This document shows positions 1 to 12,272 of a stretch of 64,000 bases of DNA, piece by piece. This DNA is from Oligoflexia bacterium (GTDB lineage: Bacteria; Bdellovibrionota; UBA1018). The notes under the pieces were generated by a model. That model was not told the origin of the DNA and searched no databases. It saw only the letters and a list, made by a program, of their open reading frames with translations. The stretch's first letter is position 1, and each line of letters starts with the position of its first letter. Position numbers and translations under genes: made by a program. Where the stretch lies: the NCBI GenBank assembly GCA_963758495.1, contig CAVWVI010000003.1, positions 1-64,000 of the forward strand, read 5' to 3'.

Positions 1-11
1 GTTACCAAAAA

Positions 12-41
12 ATATAGTCTTATCTAGACAAATCTATAAAA
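12..41 (+). repeat. IS607 left-end subterminal direct repeats (putative TnpA binding sites)
   Basis: ATATAGTCTT / ATCTAGACAA / ATCTATAAAA in tandem; 22-35 is a 13/14 inverted match to 4618-4631. Confidence 0.6.
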
Positions 42-61
42 ATAAGTAATGCAATGAAATC

Positions 62-682
62 ATGCGAGTCAGTATAAACCAAGCAGCTAAGGCTTTAGGT
101 GTGACTATTGAGACTCTTCGTAGATGGGAAGCGGACGGAAAAATTCAGTCTGAACGCACTCCAGGAGGACATCGAAGATATGATTTAACTTCCTTTGGAA
201 CTCGATCGACAGGACCTATTTTGAAGGATGCTCGTCGCACAATTGGTTATGCTCGTGTGTCGGGTCGAGATCAGACTTCGGATTTGAAGCGCCAGATTCA
301 ATTGCTTGAGTCGTTTTGTTCAGCTCGAGGTTGGCAGTATGAAGTATTGAGTGATCTGGGATCTGGACTCAACTTCCAAAAAAAGAACCTCAGACTTTTG
401 ATGAAAAAGATCTGTTCAGGAGAAGTCGATCGGCTTGTATTGACCCACAAAGATCGCCTTTTACGATTCGGATCTGAGCTTGTATTTTCTCTTTGTGAGC
501 AGTTTCAAACTGAAGTAGTGATCATGAATGCGAGCAGTGAACTTTCGTTTGAAGAAGAGTTGGCCCAAGACGTGCTTGAGATCATCACAGTTTTTTCGGC
601 GAGACTCTATGGAGCCAGAAGCCACAAGAATAAAAAAATTGTACAAGCATTGAAAGAGGCTGCTGATGAAGCTTGCGGTTAA
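62..682 (+). CDS. tnpA: IS607-family transposase TnpA (N-terminal MerR-like HTH + serine recombinase)
   Basis: AAKALGVTIETLRRWE...RTPGGHRRY HTH; YARVS catalytic Ser; DLGSGLN; HKDRLLRFG; ELAQDVLEIITVFSARLYG. Confidence 0.95.
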   Translation: MRVSINQAAKALGVTIETLRRWEADGKIQSERTPGGHRRYDLTSFGTRSTGPILKDARRTIGYARVSGRDQTSDLKRQIQLLESFCSARGWQYEVLSDLGSGLNFQKKNLRLLMKKICSGEVDRLVLTHKDRLLRFGSELVFSLCEQFQTEVVIMNASSELSFEEELAQDVLEIITVFSARLYGARSHKNKKIVQALKEAADEACG

Positions 683-1067
683 AATTCCCCTGAACCTCAC
701 TCCCGAGCAGGAGTACTCCTTGGAGGGTCAGTCAAGGATCTGCAATTGGCTTTACAATCGTCTTCTGGAACGAGCCAATCAGGAGAAAGAAGCGTTTAAG
801 CTCACAGGTTCTTCTGAGGCATCGCAAACGGTTTACACGAAACGTGGACTTAGAAATTTGGTACCTGGTCTAAAGAAAGAACACCCTTTTTTACTAACCT
901 CTCATTGTGCGCCCTTAAAAAATGCAGCTTTAAGACTATCTCGATCGATTCAACGATTTCAAAAAAATCGTAAGCTTCCGAAGAATCAGCAACAAAATGT
1001 AGGGTGGCCGAAGTTTCGCTCGTCCAAGAAAAAGTTCTTTTCTTTGGAATATGATGAATATGCAAAC
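666..1067 (+). CDS. tnpB: TnpB RNA-guided endonuclease, exon 1 (134 codons)
   Basis: TnpB-type N-terminus (KIPLNLTPEQ...CNWLYN...GWPKFRS). It ends on a codon boundary (AAC, 1065-1067) immediately before the intron GTGCG. Confidence 0.88.
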
Positions 1068-1344
1068 GTGCGACACGAGGTCGCTCACCATGAGTGAGGT
1101 TAACGCCTCTATACCAGTGTCTAGGTATATCCTCACTTCCCGGAGCGCCACTGGTAACAGTGGGGTTCTAAGCGAGAAGTAATGTCTAAGGACCCTATAA
1201 CCATAATAGGAGACCAGATTAGAGGAAGATAGAAAGGGTTAATGCAAATAAATCTTCGATGAAGCTGCGATAATTCGAACAATCGGAAGATGGCTAATTA
1301 AAGACGATTGAAATGGAGCAGGGGTTGAGAAGCCCAAAATGAAA

Positions 1345-1364
1345 GCCTTCTTGTTAGCGAAGGC
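1345..1364 (+). other. Putative EBS1 stem-loop of the intron
   Basis: Stem GCCTTC/GAAGGC with loop TTGTTAGC; GTTAGC (1353-1358) pairs 5/6 with the exon end GCAAAC (1062-1067). Confidence 0.65.
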
Positions 1365-1666
1365 GCACAGACACCAAAGCTCCCGCAGTACAGAAGAAAC
1401 CCAACCCTATCGAATCTCATATGTGCGGAACGTGGAATCCCAAATGAGTCCGAGATAACTCGGTAAGTCGATCGCAAGAAAGATCTAATTCTCATTGGGG
1501 GACAGGAGGACCTAAGAAGCAAATGCTACCAACCGAAAGGTAAGAGAAATACATAACTCGGTAGATAGGGAAAAAAAAATACCCGCCCTGAAAAGGGAGC
1601 TAACGTGGGTCTGGTGGATTGTCCAAAGTAAGGTGTGAAGTTTCTAAATCTTATGGGAAAAGTTAG

Positions 1667-3406
1667 ATGCGAGTTAAAAGACAAGCAAATGTAACCAAAG
1701 AACAAATTGAATGGGAATCTATCCAGTGGGATGAGGCCAATCGAATTGTAAGAAATCTAAGACACCGGATCTTTCGGGCTTCTCAAGCAGGAGATCTAAA
1801 AAAGGTACGATCTCTACAGAAACTAATGCTGCGATCACGCTCCAACAGCGCTATAAGCGTAAGGAGAGTAACGCAAATTAATTCTGGAAAGAAAACACCT
1901 GGAATCGATAAGGTGGTAGCAAAAGACTCTTTTGAAAGAGGACAACTGCTGAATACTCTATCAGAATACACTCTCTGGAAGGCTAAACCAACTAGAAGAG
2001 TATATATCCCAAAAGCAAACAAGCAACCCCGTCCGTTAGGAATTCCGGTGATTCTCGATCGCTCTCTTCAAGCTATGGTCAAGAATGCACTTGAACCATA
2101 CTGGGAGGCTAAATTCGAAGGATCATGCTACGGATTTCGACCAGGACGGGGCTGTCATGATGCTATAGAGAAAATATTTGGATACGTACGTCCAAGTAAA
2201 GGCAAAAGAGAATGGATCTTAGACGCCGATCTCAAGGGAGCATTTAATGAAATAAATCATGAATTTCTTCTGAAAACCATTGCGGGATTTCCCGGAAGAG
2301 AATTGATAAAACAATGGTTAAAAGCAGGATACATGGAAGATGGGGAATGGAACCCTACTGAAAGTGGGACACCACAAGGAGGGGTCATTAGTCCATTATT
2401 ATTAAATATAGCCCTGCACGGCATCGGAGATGCGTTGAAGGAACAAAGGTATTCACAGAGATATAACAAATTCGTAGAATATGGCTCGCCCAAAAGGGAT
2501 GTGATCATATACGCGGATGATTTAGTCGTGCTCTGTGAATCCAAAGAAGAAGCTGAAAAATCACGTAAGATCCTCGATAACTGGTTAAGACCAAGAGGAC
2601 TTCAATTCTCGGAGGAAAAGACACGAATAGTCCACATCTCCGAAGGATTTGATTTTCTAGGTTTCAATGTCCGACAATATAGCACACCTCGTTCATCTCG
2701 ATCTGGAAAGAAATTGATCATCAAGCCTAGCAAAGCATCCATAATGAAGCTTCGCAAGAACCTGAAGGATAAATGGCTTTCAATGAAAGGGAACTCTCCC
2801 ATTGAGATAATAGGAAAATTCAACTCTATCATTCGTGGGTGGGCTAATTACTTCAGAACCAGTTGTGCAAAACGTATCTTCGGTAAGATGGATAATTGGA
2901 TGTTCAAACGGGAAATGCGATATGTAAAATATCGACACCCCAATAAATCAATGCGATGGATGCGCAATAGATACTGGGGGAAATTCAATGAAAAGCGTAA
3001 CGATAAATGGGTATTCGGGGATAAAGAAACCGGAGCCTACATGTTACGATTCAATTGGTTTCCTATTGAACGTCATACGTTGGTCAAAGGAAGCTCTTCT
3101 CCTGACGATCCGAGCCTAAAATCATATTGGGAATCACGGAAACGAAAAGACATCAAGAACCTCAAACCACAGCAGAAAATCCTCGCAAAAAGGCAGGAAT
3201 TCCGCTGCCCAGAATGTGGGAATGATTTACTGAACGGAGAAGGGCTTCTTGAATATCCAATTATTCGTCCTAAAGTTGGAGGCTCTCCACTAGCTGAGAA
3301 CCGTTACCTCATGCACTACGACTGTCAGCAACTCAGAAACAAACATCGCCGACAGAACCTTAAAGAAACTAAAGATAACTTTAAAAGAAGTGAGCAATCT
3401 GCTTGA
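1667..3406 (+). CDS. ltrA: Group II intron reverse transcriptase/maturase with degenerate C-terminal HNH region
   Basis: GKKTPGID, RRVYIPK..RPLGIP, YGFRPGR, DADLKGAF, GTPQGGVISPLL, YADD, GFDFLGF, X-domain IRGWANYF, then CPEC...HYDC. Confidence 0.96.
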   Translation: MRVKRQANVTKEQIEWESIQWDEANRIVRNLRHRIFRASQAGDLKKVRSLQKLMLRSRSNSAISVRRVTQINSGKKTPGIDKVVAKDSFERGQLLNTLSEYTLWKAKPTRRVYIPKANKQPRPLGIPVILDRSLQAMVKNALEPYWEAKFEGSCYGFRPGRGCHDAIEKIFGYVRPSKGKREWILDADLKGAFNEINHEFLLKTIAGFPGRELIKQWLKAGYMEDGEWNPTESGTPQGGVISPLLLNIALHGIGDALKEQRYSQRYNKFVEYGSPKRDVIIYADDLVVLCESKEEAEKSRKILDNWLRPRGLQFSEEKTRIVHISEGFDFLGFNVRQYSTPRSSRSGKKLIIKPSKASIMKLRKNLKDKWLSMKGNSPIEIIGKFNSIIRGWANYFRTSCAKRIFGKMDNWMFKREMRYVKYRHPNKSMRWMRNRYWGKFNEKRNDKWVFGDKETGAYMLRFNWFPIERHTLVKGSSSPDDPSLKSYWESRKRKDIKNLKPQQKILAKRQEFRCPECGNDLLNGEGLLEYPIIRPKVGGSPLAENRYLMHYDCQQLRNKHRRQNLKETKDNFKRSEQSA

Positions 3407-3480
3407 GCCGTATGATGCGATAAGTATCACGTACGGTTCTGAGAGGAGGGGGATGTAGCAATACATCCCTCTTACTCGAC

Positions 3481-4584
3481 GGGTACAGCATCAAGCGAGT
3501 GAACCATCAATGGTACTTAGATTTATCTTTAGGTGAAAACAAGGAAGGCCCCCTGAAGCATAGGATCGAGATTCAAGAGATGCCTGAGTCCGTAGCGGAT
3601 CAACTTCTTCATGCGGAAAAAGAGCATAAAAGAATGAAGGCACAGAAGAAAAAAGAAAAATCCAAAGAAAAGTTACTCTCGATTCGAAAGCTTCTTTCAT
3701 TCACTGGCATTCGAATTAAAAAAGAAGGGGCTTGTTGGTCAGCTACCTTGAGCATCAATAAAACAATGCCTGCTCCGATTGCCGAAATAAACTCAGTAGC
3801 AGTCATAGATCCCAACCATAAAAATCTAGGATATCTCATTGATACGGAAGCCAATGGGGTCGAAATTGAAAATCTTTGGTTCGTAAAGTCTTTGGATCAA
3901 AGAATAGATGAAATTAAAGCAAGGAGAGATCGATGTAATAAAAACTCAGTTTTAATAAAAAGAGAAGATGGAAGTAAGATGACGCGACCATCCCGAAGAT
4001 GGAAGTTCTTTCAAAAATACTTGGATGAGTTGTATCGGGTGAAACGAGAAAAGATTAAGTCAGCCCTCTATGCAATCTCCAATGCTCTGGTGAAACGCTA
4101 TGATTTTATTGCAGTAGGCGACTACACTCCTCGTGGGGGAGGGATCTCCACTGGAATGAGGCGCTCTATGAATAACCAAAGTCAAATTGGGAAGTTCAAG
4201 CAAACTTTGAGCTGGGTTTGTACCCGTGAAGGGAAGAACTACTTTGAGTGGGATGAAGCTAAGAGCACAAAAACCTGTTCCCAATGTGATCACCCCACAG
4301 GCCCGACTCAAGACCCTTCAGTGAGACAATGGCAATGTGGCCAATGTAAAACTCATCACATCAGGGATGAGAATGCCGCCATGAATGGGTTTAAAAAAGT
4401 TGCTCAGGAAATAAAAATATTACAGGTGCCTTGCTCGGGCCAACTCTGGGAGAAAGTGGAGAAAGAAAAAATTCTCCAGCCCACTCAGAGATGGGCTTGG
4501 CGGTTCCACGGTAGTGGGATTCACGTCTCGCGGGCCAGTGGATGCGTTCAATCGCAACCCCAAGAAATTCAATGTGCTGGTTAA
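3481..4584 (+). CDS. tnpB: TnpB RNA-guided endonuclease, exon 2 (RuvC + zinc finger; 367 aa)
   Basis: In frame with exon 1 after splicing (…YAN|GYSIKRVNHQW…). Contains VAVIDP, IAVGD, WDEAKSTKTCSQC, WQCGQC and RDENAAMN. Confidence 0.9.
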   Translation, partial: GYSIKRVNHQWYLDLSLGENKEGPLKHRIEIQEMPESVADQLLHAEKEHKRMKAQKKKEKSKEKLLSIRKLLSFTGIRIKKEGACWSATLSINKTMPAPIAEINSVAVIDPNHKNLGYLIDTEANGVEIENLWFVKSLDQRIDEIKARRDRCNKNSVLIKREDGSKMTRPSRRWKFFQKYLDELYRVKREKIKSALYAISNALVKRYDFIAVGDYTPRGGGISTGMRRSMNNQSQIGKFKQTLSWVCTREGKNYFEWDEAKSTKTCSQCDHPTGPTQDPSVRQWQCGQCKTHHIRDENAAMNGFKKVAQEIKILQVPCSGQLWEKVEKEKILQPTQRWAWRFHGSGIHVSRASGCVQSQPQEIQCAG

Positions 4585-4663
4585 ACCAGACGTCTTAATC
4601 TAAACTCGATCGTATCCAGATTTGTATAGATTAAGAAGAGCGGCTGCTCGTTCCATACCTCCA
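4423..4663 (+). ncRNA. Putative TnpB omegaRNA (scaffold to ~4643 + flank-derived guide)
   Basis: Position expected for TnpB systems. Hairpins at 4428-4440, 4577-4589 and 4593-4602/4627-4636. Loop TGCTC (4432-4436) is complementary to GAGCG (4638-4642). Boundaries are inferred. Confidence 0.5.
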
Positions 4664-4722
4664 TTCTACCCTAGATTGGACATTTTATGGGGGTAAAAAA
4701 AGTGAGGCGGTCCAGTATTTTG

Positions 4723-4900
4723 CCAAAGCCCCAGCTTTATACCGCCGCAACTCATCCGCCGAAGGCGGGAGACAAGGGGCTCCCGGTAAAAGTGAGGGGT
4801 TTTTGCGGCATGGATGCCGCAGCCGGCGTAGCCGGCGCAAAAAGGGCAGGAGCCCGACCCCGACATCTTTTTACCGGGAAGCCCCTCTGGATTGCTTTGG
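4723..4900. repeat. GC-rich branched palindromic element (REP/MITE-like or structured RNA)
   Basis: Nested inverted repeats CCAAAGC/GCTTTGG and GGGGCTCCCGGTAAAA/TTTTACCGGGAAGCCCC enclose several short hairpins. Confidence 0.6.
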
Positions 4901-4933
4901 AAAATATCAATAAATCCAGTTACACTGAAAGAA

Positions 4934-5374
4934 ATGACTGAAAGTATAAAAACTGTCCTGGATATCCATGCAGAAACCGCTTTATTTGACGGGCAAGTTC
5001 AGGCTCTTGCCGTTACCCTATATGAAAACGAGCGCCCTCCCTGCGGCCTTTCTGGCTTAATGGACTGGCATTTTCGTGGCGCAATATCCCAGTGTATTAA
5101 AGCAGGAGCCATTACTGGAAAAGTAGGAGAATGCATTTATTTCCCATTCACTCGGCATGGCTCTACCTACCATGTCATTTTGGCTGGAGCTGGCCCATCT
5201 GATTCTCCTGGAAAACGACAACCGCCTCCTCCAGATACTCTTGCAGCCTTACAAAAGAATTTAGTCTCATTACAATTACCTCAAGTCTGTATTTCAAAAT
5301 CGGATTTTGGAGAAATAGAGTCCGACTTTTTTGAAAAGCACTTGAAAGGAGTTCCTCTTTGGATCGCACTGTAA
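4934..5374 (+). CDS. Stand-alone M17 leucyl aminopeptidase N-terminal domain-like protein
   Basis: ENERPPCGLSGLMDWHFRGAISQCIKAGAITGKVGE resembles the PepA N-terminal domain. ATG at 4934 is preferred over TTG 4892. Confidence 0.6.
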   Translation: MTESIKTVLDIHAETALFDGQVQALAVTLYENERPPCGLSGLMDWHFRGAISQCIKAGAITGKVGECIYFPFTRHGSTYHVILAGAGPSDSPGKRQPPPPDTLAALQKNLVSLQLPQVCISKSDFGEIESDFFEKHLKGVPLWIAL

Positions 5375-5730
5375 AACCATTTAATTTGGAAATCGCTCGA
5401 AACCTGCTATCCACTTCAGAACAATTTGAACCGTACGTCCCAGAATCACATCAAGATTTGCTATACTCACTCAATCTACTAAAAGACCTCGGTGCGATCA
5501 CTTTACAAAGCCTTCAAGTTAAAAAAACCATGAAAGAAATCCCAGCACCCCCTCCGAACCCCCTTCCTCAGGCCCCTGCCCATTCACCCAAAGATCATAA
5601 AAAGGAATCCCATCCCATGATCAAAGACCAACAGATCTTGGAAGCTTTACTTGAACTACGTAACTCGAATCGACTTTCTAAACGTAGTCTTAGCATGCAC
5701 AGCGCCATCATTCGCTCGAAAAAACCATGA
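5359..5730 (+). CDS. Hypothetical protein with Pro-rich linker
   Basis: 123-aa ORF overlapping both neighbours; start uncertain. Confidence 0.5.
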   Translation: MDRTVKPFNLEIARNLLSTSEQFEPYVPESHQDLLYSLNLLKDLGAITLQSLQVKKTMKEIPAPPPNPLPQAPAHSPKDHKKESHPMIKDQQILEALLELRNSNRLSKRSLSMHSAIIRSKKP

Positions 5731-6239
5731 AACTATTTGAATTCTTAACTCACGTATTATCCGCACACGCTCACACCCTCCAAAGACTTGCTGCTTTTTT
5801 TGGTGAAGAAGAATTTTTAGAAATTCTAGAACTGGCAGGTGACTCTCCAGCAAATGAACTCTCTTCATTTCATTTAGATCCCGATTGGTTCACTTCGTCC
5901 AAGGCCGTAGATCAATCATCTGCCTATCAAAACCTTGAAGGAACTGTAAATGACTTCAAACTTTCCGCCGTACTCGAATTCCACCTCTGGACCTATCCTT
6001 TTTATCGATCTATCATTGAAAGCTCAATCAACCTGAATTCTGATATTCGCCTTTCTAAAGATCACGTGGATGAAGGAATCATTCAGCAAGCAGTTACCGA
6101 AGCAAAGAATTGGGTAAAATCTCTCCCCCTTTCACCTGACCTCAGCCGCCAGGCAGAGCAAATTGCCATTACTCCTTGGGTCAGATTTCGCTCTGAAGTT
6201 CTTAAAAAAATGGGTAAACGTCCGTTTGCTTCGTTATAA
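5727..6239 (+). CDS. Hypothetical protein
   Basis: 170-aa ORF with ATGA overlap to the upstream ORF. Confidence 0.65.
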   Translation: MKLFEFLTHVLSAHAHTLQRLAAFFGEEEFLEILELAGDSPANELSSFHLDPDWFTSSKAVDQSSAYQNLEGTVNDFKLSAVLEFHLWTYPFYRSIIESSINLNSDIRLSKDHVDEGIIQQAVTEAKNWVKSLPLSPDLSRQAEQIAITPWVRFRSEVLKKMGKRPFASL

Positions 6240-11008: not shown

Positions 11009-11145
11009 ACTTTCCTCTCATTCTTGACATCTCTCACTCGACCCTATCGAGAAAACATGTTAGAATCTGTGTACTTTAAGCTAGAGTACTGAATCTTTCG
11101 ATAAAACTAAAGTAAGAATGCAAGAAAATCCTAGGAGTTTAAGTC

Positions 11146-11475
11146 ATGACATCAAAAAACGTCCACGGTGCAACCGATAGCAACTTTGAATCAGATATTA
11201 TGAAATCCTCTGAGCTCACACTGGTAGACTTTTGGGCAGAGTGGTGTGGCCCTTGTCGTCTTTTAGGGCCTACGATTGAACAAATTGCCGATGAATACGC
11301 AGGAAAAATCAAGGTTTTCAAAATGAATGTAGATGAAAACCCAAACACTCCTGCTCGATTTCATATTCGTGGAATTCCTACAGTTATTTTCTTTAAAGGT
11401 GGACAGGCTGTAGATCAGCTAGTCGGAAATCAACCTAAGGATGTTATTGTCCAAACGATCCTCAAGCATTCTTAA
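11146..11475 (+). CDS. trxA: Thioredoxin
   Basis: DFWAEWCGPC, IRGIPT. Confidence 0.97.
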   Translation: MTSKNVHGATDSNFESDIMKSSELTLVDFWAEWCGPCRLLGPTIEQIADEYAGKIKVFKMNVDENPNTPARFHIRGIPTVIFFKGGQAVDQLVGNQPKDVIVQTILKHS

Positions 11476-11485
11476 TGGATGAGCT

Positions 11486-11521
11486 GCGCCTCGGAGAATG
11501 ACGCAATGCTCTTCGAGGCGC
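11486..11521 (+). terminator. Hairpin downstream of trxA
   Basis: GCGCCTCGGAG...CTTCGAGGCGC inverted repeat; no U-tract on the + strand. Confidence 0.4.
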
Positions 11522-11564
11522 AAAATAAATTCAAATAATATCCACTATTCACCGAAAAGAGACC

Positions 11565-12272
11565 ATGCAATGTATTCTTCTTATTGATGACCATGTTGAA
11601 ACACAGCTCATCGTTAAAAACGTGGTTTTTCCAAAATATCGACTGATTTCTGCCTCCTCAGCTTCGGACGCATTGAAAAAAATAGAGAACTTTCCATTCG
11701 ATCTTATTCTAATTGACATCAGCCTACCCGATGGCAATGGTTTAGAATTCTGCACTCAACTTAAAAATAATAGTAAAACACGAAACACACCCTTCATCTT
11801 TTTAACGGCGGACGGAAACACCCACAGCAAGGTCATAGGCTTTTCACTTGGGGCTCAAGATTACGTTGTAAAACCTTTCGATCCCGTTGAACTACGAGCA
11901 CGGATCGAGGCAAGACTTCAAAATATTCAAGAAAACAAAGAGCGGGAAGAAGTTATTAACGTTGAGAATCTCATTATCAATACTGTTTCACAAAAAGTCC
12001 TACTGACCAAAGGGGATGAGGAAATTGATTTAAAACTAACCCCGCTTGAATTTAAAATTCTTCTTTATTTTGTAAAAAATGAGAAAATAGTTCTCAATAG
12101 AGAACAAATCATTACTGCAGTATGGGGTTGGAATGCAGATATTTTTGATCGTGTTATCGATAAACATCTGTCTACCCTTCGCCATAAACTAAAAGATTCA
12201 TCTCAGATTATCGAAACCGTACACGGATTAGGTTACTATTTTAACCCCTCTTCAAAAAAGATAAAACCATGA
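11565..12272 (+). CDS. OmpR/PhoB-family response regulator
   Basis: Receiver (IDD, LIDISLPDGNG, KPF) + winged helix (LTPLEFKIL, LRHKL, IETVHGLGY). Confidence 0.93.
   Translation: MQCILLIDDHVETQLIVKNVVFPKYRLISASSASDALKKIENFPFDLILIDISLPDGNGLEFCTQLKNNSKTRNTPFIFLTADGNTHSKVIGFSLGAQDYVVKPFDPVELRARIEARLQNIQENKEREEVINVENLIINTVSQKVLLTKGDEEIDLKLTPLEFKILLYFVKNEKIVLNREQIITAVWGWNADIFDRVIDKHLSTLRHKLKDSSQIIETVHGLGYYFNPSSKKIKP

Follow-up and report, generated by a model that had tools for sequence, protein, structure and literature searches.

A group II intron lies within the tnpB gene of an IS607-family insertion sequence of an Oligoflexia bacterium and is predicted to restore it by splicing

Results

Organization of the composite element

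The stretch of DNA analyzed here (hereafter the window) comprises the first 64,000 nucleotides of contig CAVWVI010000003.1 (C3) in the assembly GCA_963758495.1 of an Oligoflexia bacterium, a 3.66-Mb genome in 5 contigs with about 42% G+C. At the start of the window lies an insertion sequence (IS) of the IS607 family, the tnpB gene of which is split by a group II intron that carries its own reverse transcriptase (RT) gene (Table 1). The product of the upstream gene, tnpA, scores 206.2 bits against the NCBIfam model NF033518 (cut-off 110) and joins an N-terminal helix-turn-helix (HTH) domain, MerR, to a Resolvase domain in Pfam, as befits an IS607-family serine recombinase. Also in keeping with this family, tnpB lies directly 3' of tnpA, its start overlapping the tnpA end by 17 nt, and both ends of the element are defined. 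The succession of serine-recombinase tnpA, group II retroelement and tnpB had been proposed in a preliminary description made from the sequence alone, and the profile matches reported here bear it out.

Table 1. Coordinates of the composite element, of its parts and of the second intron-split tnpB locus (L128, contig C1). Positions are those of the window except in the rows marked L128.
Feature	Position	Strand	Basis or remarks
Whole composite, IS607-family IS with intron	6..4644	+	4639 bp; limits from comparison of two copies
Left subterminal inverted-repeat arm	22..35	.	Partner at 4618-4631; 14 nt, 93% complementary (repeat search)
tnpA, IS607-family serine recombinase, 206 aa	62..682	+	NF033518 transpos_IS607; Pfam MerR and Resolvase
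tnpB exon 1, 134 codons (402 nt), ending ...FFSLEYDEYAN	666..1067	+	Pfam HTH_OrfB_IS605; NF040570 positions 2-110
IBS2 UGAAU (1055-1059), 2-nt gap, IBS1 GCAAAC (1062-1067)	1055..1067	+	Pair with EBS2 and EBS1
Group II intron, 2413 nt	1068..3480	+	5' GTGCGACACGAGG common to relatives; RF00029 at 3' end; second genomic copy
EBS2 AUUCG	1273..1277	+	Loop after conserved CG(A/T)TA; pairs 5/5 with IBS2
EBS1 hairpin, stem GCCTTC/GAAGGC, EBS1 GUUAGC at 1353-1358	1345..1364	+	Pairs 5/6 with IBS1
RT/maturase, 579 aa, intact reading frame	1667..3406	+	TIGR04416; Pfam RVT_N, RVT_1 and GIIM; YADD
Intron domains V and VI (catalytic AGC helix, bulged A)	3403..3480	+	RF00029 full-length match
tnpB exon 2, 367 codons (1101 nt) and stop, starting GYSIKRVNHQWY	3481..4584	+	Cas12f1-like_TNB; NF040570 positions 134-385
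Structured 3' end of IS, presumed omega RNA (guide) scaffold	4400..4644	+	Minimum free energy z-score; putative assignment
L128 Y1 tnpA	11097-11594	+	
L128 tnpB exon 1	11102->10941	-	Split after codon 54
L128 intron, 2375 nt	10940->8566	-	568-aa RT
L128 tnpB exon 2	8565->7615	-	

The exon junction and the reconstituted TnpB

Two open reading frames (ORFs) flank the intron. The 5' piece (666..1097) encodes 143 aa, consisting of the 134 aa of exon 1 and 9 aa of read-in from the intron, and the 3' piece (3499..4584) encodes 361 aa from a GTG codon, in a frame that is open from 3481 to the stop at 4582-4584. The intron boundaries fall at 1067/1068 (...TATGCAAAC/GTGCGAC) and 3480/3481 (...CTTACTCGAC/GGGTAC), which gives a predicted ligated-exon junction of ...TATGCAAAC/GGGTACAGC... 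Both exons are in phase 0 and the junction is stop-free, their sum of 501 aa being the length of the closest uninterrupted homologue (P0001). Since positions 1068 and 3481 are both G, the splice sites carry an ambiguity of one base, and shifting both of them by one base leaves the product unchanged; the 1068/3480 solution is preferred on the grounds of the GUGCG consensus and of the domain VI spacing.

Homologues of TnpB were recovered with exon 2 as the query, and the two exon products were aligned to them as separate, unjoined rows (alignment A1). Against eight uninterrupted homologues (P0001 and seven others of 453-506 aa) the two products abut with neither gap nor overlap, the window reading EYDEYAN/GY where P0001 reads EYDEYGNGY, so that not a single residue is lost or duplicated. 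P0001, which reads ...FFSLEYDEYGNGYFIRRVNNQWF across the junction, is 87% identical over exon 1 and 80% over exon 2, and a six-frame search of the genome with this protein places its residues 1-134 at 666-1067 and its residues 134-501 at 3478-4581. The boundaries and the 134+367 = 501 aa fusion advanced in the preliminary description are thus recovered, and its seamless junction withstands comparison with intact homologues.

Exon 1 and exon 2 score 31.3 and 83.6 bits, respectively, against NF040570, each of them alone falling below the cut-off of 100, and uninterrupted P0001 reaches 126.2 bits. The RuvC residues D (VIDPNHKN), E (KREKIK) and D (IRDENAA), as well as the zinc-finger CxxC pairs (CSQC...CGQC), are present in exon 2 at near-invariant columns of A1 and of a further alignment, A2, and structurally solved TnpB-type chains can be aligned over the D...D regions. 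Given that the RuvC triad and both CxxC pairs all reside in exon 2, unspliced RNA is expected to give only the 143-aa N-terminal piece. This agrees with the RuvC-less product that had been anticipated for unspliced RNA, and the layout of ORFs and exons likewise supports the earlier proposal that full-length TnpB could be made only from spliced RNA. Another homologue, P0007, has the same length (361 aa) as the GTG-started exon-2 ORF and was considered as a further split gene; it was rejected as such, being a full gene that has suffered an internal deletion.

The 3' end of the IS is where the scaffold of the TnpB guide RNA (omega RNA) would be expected. The region 4400-4644 folds with a minimum free energy of -83.4 kcal/mol against a mean of -64.0 for shuffled sequences (z = -4.3), and none of 200 shuffles folds as well, which is consistent with a putative omega RNA at this position.

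Ribozyme features and recognition of the target site

The 5' end of the intron, GTGCG at 1068, fits the GUGYG consensus of group II introns, and the Rfam model of domains V and VI (RF00029) is matched end to end at 3403-3480 with 59 bits (gathering threshold 40; E 4.6e-10), the alignment placing the bulged A 7 nt before the 3' splice site. Exon-binding sites (EBS) and intron-binding sites (IBS) were mapped with the help of relatives of the intron, which came from a genome scan that yielded 33 loci with RT relatives; 16 of their 5' junctions were inspected and 11 were aligned with the window. The relatives open with GTGCGAC(A/C)CGA, as does the window intron, and a 5' GTGCGACACGA motif is common to 12 related introns. 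Their IBS geometry is also identical to that of the window, with exon positions -13..-9 and -6..-1. The EBS2 loop covaries with the exon, as is apparent from the comparison of L096 (TTTTA/TAAAA) with the near-identical L097 (TTCTA/TAGAA), L092 and L094 showing such covariation too. In the window its pairing with IBS2 is complete (5/5), one of the pairs being G-U. The EBS1 of the relatives, found in the loop of a hairpin between intron positions 267 and 310, pairs 6/6 with the respective 5' exon. A perfect EBS1 was sought in the window intron and none was found. The stretch ATCTTC at 1252 had been a candidate for EBS2 and was dropped, being conserved across relatives regardless of the exon.

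As a control, the same pairing was scored at the homologous site of uninterrupted tnpB genes from metagenomes. Out of 80 such loci, 5 had no recognisable motif; the remaining 75 pair at no more than 4/6 with EBS1 and no more than 5/5 with EBS2, and the pairing in the window surpasses that of all 75. Such a good but imperfect target fits either insertion at a near-cognate (ectopic) site or later drift. By every sequence criterion that we applied, the intron is predicted to be competent for splicing.

The intron-encoded protein and its lineage

The RT/maturase scores 331.6 bits against TIGR04416 (cut-off 300) and its assignment is completed by the YADD motif and the RVT_N, RVT_1 and GIIM domains. 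Its closest solved chain is 6me0_C (E 8.3e-108), which we take to be the Thermosynechococcus T.el4h RT, and this similarity suggests a putative CL/IIB1 intron. The best full-length RT matches in the genome scan are 37-54% identical to the window RT. Of two TnpB profiles, one made from 110 homologues and the other from 106, neither found TnpB in the available flanks of any of the 33 loci, and both matched their controls, the window and the L128 locus described below. The intron lineage is therefore not specialised on tnpB. Several of its members are located at tRNA genes instead: the L116 intron begins within the final 2 nt of a match to the Rfam tRNA model, and a T-arm-like GGTTCGA, among tRNA genes, closes the 5' exon in L092, L093, L118 (a Thermoguttaceae metagenome-assembled genome) and L095. 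A Rickettsia endosymbiont (L106) was seen to carry copies of the intron arranged head to tail, with domains V-VI at 8-82, 2351-2425 and 4695-4769, the next intron beginning at 2426.

A second copy of the composite

The genome holds a second copy of the composite on the minus strand of the same contig (about 1300163-1304801). The two copies are 99.87% identical over 4639 bp, with 5 mismatches and 1 gap, and the sequence past both ends is unrelated. The tnpA gene of copy 2 presents a single synonymous change, leaving tnpA intact in both copies, and the sole substitution within the intron is R122H in the PRPLGIP motif of the RT. Exon 2 of copy 2 has accumulated two synonymous changes and the replacement W86S, which affects a Trp that is invariant in alignment A2 (position 220 when numbered along the full protein). 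It has also lost 1 nt at the position equivalent to 3748 of the window, and this deletion throws exon 2 out of frame. Copy 2 being frameshifted, the copy in the window is the intact one. The left end of contig C3 is only 5 bp away from the end of the IS, which renders the left-flank target of copy 1 unreadable; the contig probably starts there on account of an assembly break at the composite repeat.

Relatives of the window IS are rare, being found in only one of 74 other genomes of the family (G066) and in two of 400 other genomes of the phylum, and then at 41-47% identity. A scan of metagenomes returned relatives that are about 40% identical, together with a sole locus at 60% (L010) that does not cover the insertion site.

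An independent intron-split tnpB gene in the same genome

Locus L128 of contig C1 (7615-11594) harbors a second, independent composite, an IS605-type element whose Y1 TnpA is divergent and whose tnpB is split by an intron (Table 1). The intron is again in sense orientation and phase 0, and the junction ...VWNYC/NDTSF... is seamless when compared with ...VWNYCNDTSY... of P0122. Relative to the composite of the window, the RT is 37% identical and TnpB 28%, and the insertion site lies at codon 54/55 as opposed to 134/135. The L128 intron matches RF02012 (76.7 bits) and RF00029 (53.9 bits), and no EBS1 pairing 6/6 was found in it.

Discussion

Relationship to known systems

Site-specific insertion of group II introns into tnpB ORFs was reported by Kapitonov, Makarova and Koonin in 2016 (PMC4810608, Suppl. 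Fig. S9). According to the section of that work dealing with them, identical 2511-bp RT-maturase-HNH introns occupy the same codon position, in the same orientation, of two tnpB genes that are 60% identical (IS605-1_CC and IS605B-1_CC of Coleofasciculus chthonoplastes PCC 7420); IS605B-1_CC is present in three copies, two of which contain the intron. The same section raises the alternative of two insertions versus transposition of a composite, mentions many more introns at other tnpB positions and proposes such insertions as a possible origin of the IscB/Cas9 HNH domain (PMC4810608). The composite described here resembles those cases, as far as they are documented there, in the sense orientation of the intron within the tnpB frame and in the existence of near-identical composite copies. 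It differs from them in its host, which is an IS607-type element with a serine recombinase and not an IS605-type element with a Y1 TnpA; in the site, codon 134/135 versus 50/51; in the degenerate HNH of its intron; and in that no empty copy is left in the genome. The novelty that the preliminary description implied is consequently not upheld, since the reported cases share both the orientation and the near-identical composites. In our full-text literature searches, PMC4810608 was the only direct description found of a group II intron in tnpB, and no description was found of one in an IS607-type tnpB. The window case is thus a new and clean example of a known habit of introns and does not constitute a new category.

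Related settings have been described for other introns. The Thermosynechococcus elongatus introns are classified as CL/IIB1 in the account by Mohr et al. published in 2010 (PMC2882425), which places TeI4h in a tRNA-Ile gene and the introns of family F4 at a conserved site of ISEL1, an element of the IS200 family. The tRNA setting of TeI4h is echoed by those relatives of the window intron that abut tRNA-like 3' ends; host gene and organism differ between the T. elongatus introns and the window intron. The composite also recalls the IStrons, as portrayed by Tourasse et al. in 2014 (PMC4227781) and in a 2023 preprint by Zedaveinyte et al. (PMC10690162), in that a self-splicing intron and an IS607/IS605 tnpA-tnpB pair form one nested mobile entity. 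In an IStron, however, a group I ribozyme surrounds the IS and splicing removes the whole IS from the host transcript (PMC4227781, PMC10690162), whereas in the window a group II retroelement sits within the tnpB of the IS itself, and splicing would repair that gene. Consistently, positions 1-6000 of the window match group II intron models only, and the intron lies within the IS and not around it. No conflict between splicing and the guide RNA is to be expected in this arrangement, because the 3' splice site is located ~900 nt upstream of the presumed guide-RNA region.

Nature and origin of the composite

The reading that best accounts for these observations, to which we assign a probability of roughly 0.8, is that an ORF-bearing group II intron inserted in sense orientation into the tnpB of an IS607-family element, where it would reside as a passenger in an opportunistic safe haven, with splicing restoring TnpB. 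The intron would have entered between tnpB codons 134 and 135, and its removal would restore a full-length, catalytically complete TnpB of 501 aa, unspliced RNA yielding only the 143-aa N-terminal fragment. We infer from this arrangement that the intron is spliced in vivo and that the TnpB so produced would be active. Given that tnpA lies upstream of the intron and is untouched, the IS would still be mobile and carry the intron along. A lineage that is not specialised on tnpB and a near-cognate site, at which 10 of the 11 EBS/IBS pairs are formed, suggest an opportunistic insertion and not a dedicated device.

Several observations weigh against this reading. At exon position -4 (1064), the third base of an Ala codon, the pairing of EBS1 with IBS1 is broken by an internal A-A mismatch, which could reduce splicing efficiency. 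Functional group II introns tolerate a single EBS1 mismatch that is backed by full EBS2 pairing. The Rfam model D1-D4-7 yields only 28.7 bits for the window intron (cut-off 34), over its positions 26-69, and the search for an omega RNA at the IS 3' end returned no Rfam family, RAGATH-type models included, at E <= 1. The C-terminal HNH endonuclease (En) domain of the RT is degenerate, with LEYPII...DCQ in place of the histidine-bearing motif (HxHH, or DH in L116, followed by CH) that is found in 9 of 10 full-length relatives, the tenth (L092) being degenerate too; Pfam HNH gives no match in the window RT at E <= 0.01. The loss of the HNH histidines makes endonuclease-dependent homing doubtful and the mechanism of mobility uncertain. 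Mobile group II introns that lack En exist, an active HNH being confined to En-plus lineages and not required of the group as a whole. Taken jointly, the EBS1-IBS1 mismatch and the degenerate En argue against an optimised arrangement. To these points must be added that an intron-less copy of the window IS was found neither in its own genome nor, as an empty site, in the 74 other family genomes or the 400 other genomes of the phylum, and that movement of the composite as a unit is no more than probable, the divergence of the IS part (5 differences in 2225 bases) and that of the intron (1 in 2413) not differing significantly (Fisher p = 0.11).

The mismatch and the degenerate En motif are also what might be expected of a dead-end insertion, in which the intron entered a site that is only near-cognate, is spliced inefficiently if at all and has in effect knocked out tnpB, leaving the IS to move by means of TnpA alone while intron and tnpB decay. 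The state of copy 2, with its frameshift, the substitution of an invariant Trp (W86S) and R122H in PRPLGIP, would fit this scenario, as would the rarity of the IS and the low identity of its few relatives. Nevertheless, copy 1 has kept its three ORFs and its two exons intact, together with every catalytic residue that was checked, domains V-VI are canonical, and a single EBS1 mismatch alongside a full EBS2 is tolerated by functional group II introns, so we consider a dead end unlikely. A different question is how the two copies arose. Transposition of the composite as one unit is favoured, by about two to one, over separate retrohoming of the intron into two pre-existing intron-less copies of the IS, the preference resting on the imperfect target and the degenerate En, which should both lower the efficiency of repeated homing. 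Two homing events are possible, though the less probable course: the intron is less diverged (1/2413) than the IS (5/2225), retrohoming into identical sites is the usual behaviour of group II introns, and the possibility is also raised by Kapitonov et al. for their own case, in the section cited above (PMC4810608). Against them stand the lack of significance of the divergence gap (p = 0.11, or 0.20 when only substitutions are counted), the absence of any remaining intron-less copy of the window IS from the genome and the integrity of tnpA in both copies. Most likely, then, the composite would have been copied as a unit to the second locus, where it is now decaying. The earlier proposal that the intron rides with IS607 transposition can therefore be retained in part, inasmuch as two composites 99.87% identical, with different right flanks, are consistent with it and two retrohoming events are the less probable alternative.

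It could also be postulated that the intron is a selected regulatory device, with splicing gating TnpB and the 143-aa fragment having a role of its own. Full-length TnpB would indeed arise only after splicing, and the genome contains another tnpB, unrelated to that of the window, which is split by an equally unrelated intron. This hypothesis is nonetheless very improbable, for neither the homologues P0001-P0008 nor the 75 metagenome loci bear an intron at the site, all 33 related loci have the intron lineage at other locations, EBS and IBS pair imperfectly, and copy 2 is decaying with no sign of selection. Moreover, the group II introns of this genome are found also in or beside other IS types, as simple tolerance of insertions predicts. 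A bolder version, in which tnpB introns at large act as splicing-dependent gates, serine recombinase, RT and TnpB travel together as a three-enzyme unit, TnpB needs an active maturase and the HTH-containing 143-aa fragment serves as a regulator or competitor, seems to us quite improbable. If such gating were real, the presence in one genome of two intron/tnpB pairs unrelated to each other would be a product of selection, as opposed to mere tolerance. In the passenger reading that we prefer, the interest of the locus resides in the nesting of three selfish systems within 4.6 kb, present as an intact and a decaying copy, in a genome where another tnpB has been split independently. The locus could lend itself as a natural system in which to ask if TnpB expression can be gated by a group II intron, and if introns with a defective endonuclease of their own can be spread by IS607 transposition.

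Other mobile elements of the host genome

Nesting of mobile elements is common in this genome. A third family of group II introns, with an RT of about 436 aa and a match of 118 bits to RF02005, is present in two copies, L130 (C3:325001-332000) and L129 (C4:21501-28500). In L130, a 483-aa ORF for a Tn5-like DDE transposase (4266-5717, on the opposite strand) lies between intron domains I-IV and the RT ORF, and a fragment of an IS110-family transposase is found just upstream. Intron-less IS607-type elements were observed in L128 (1081-2963, minus strand), where the tnpB of 478 aa is uninterrupted, and at C2:123224-123784, their TnpA being 38-39% identical to that of the window. The genome consequently holds both occupied and unoccupied IS607-type elements, which belong to different lineages.

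Just to the right of the IS end, the segment 4680-4890 of the window is G+C-rich and strongly structured (z = -5.4). A search of this segment against Rfam gave no matches. Contig C1 carries partial copies, one of them 92% identical over 112 nt and the other 83% over 47 nt. The segment may be a small repeat element or an unrecognised RNA.

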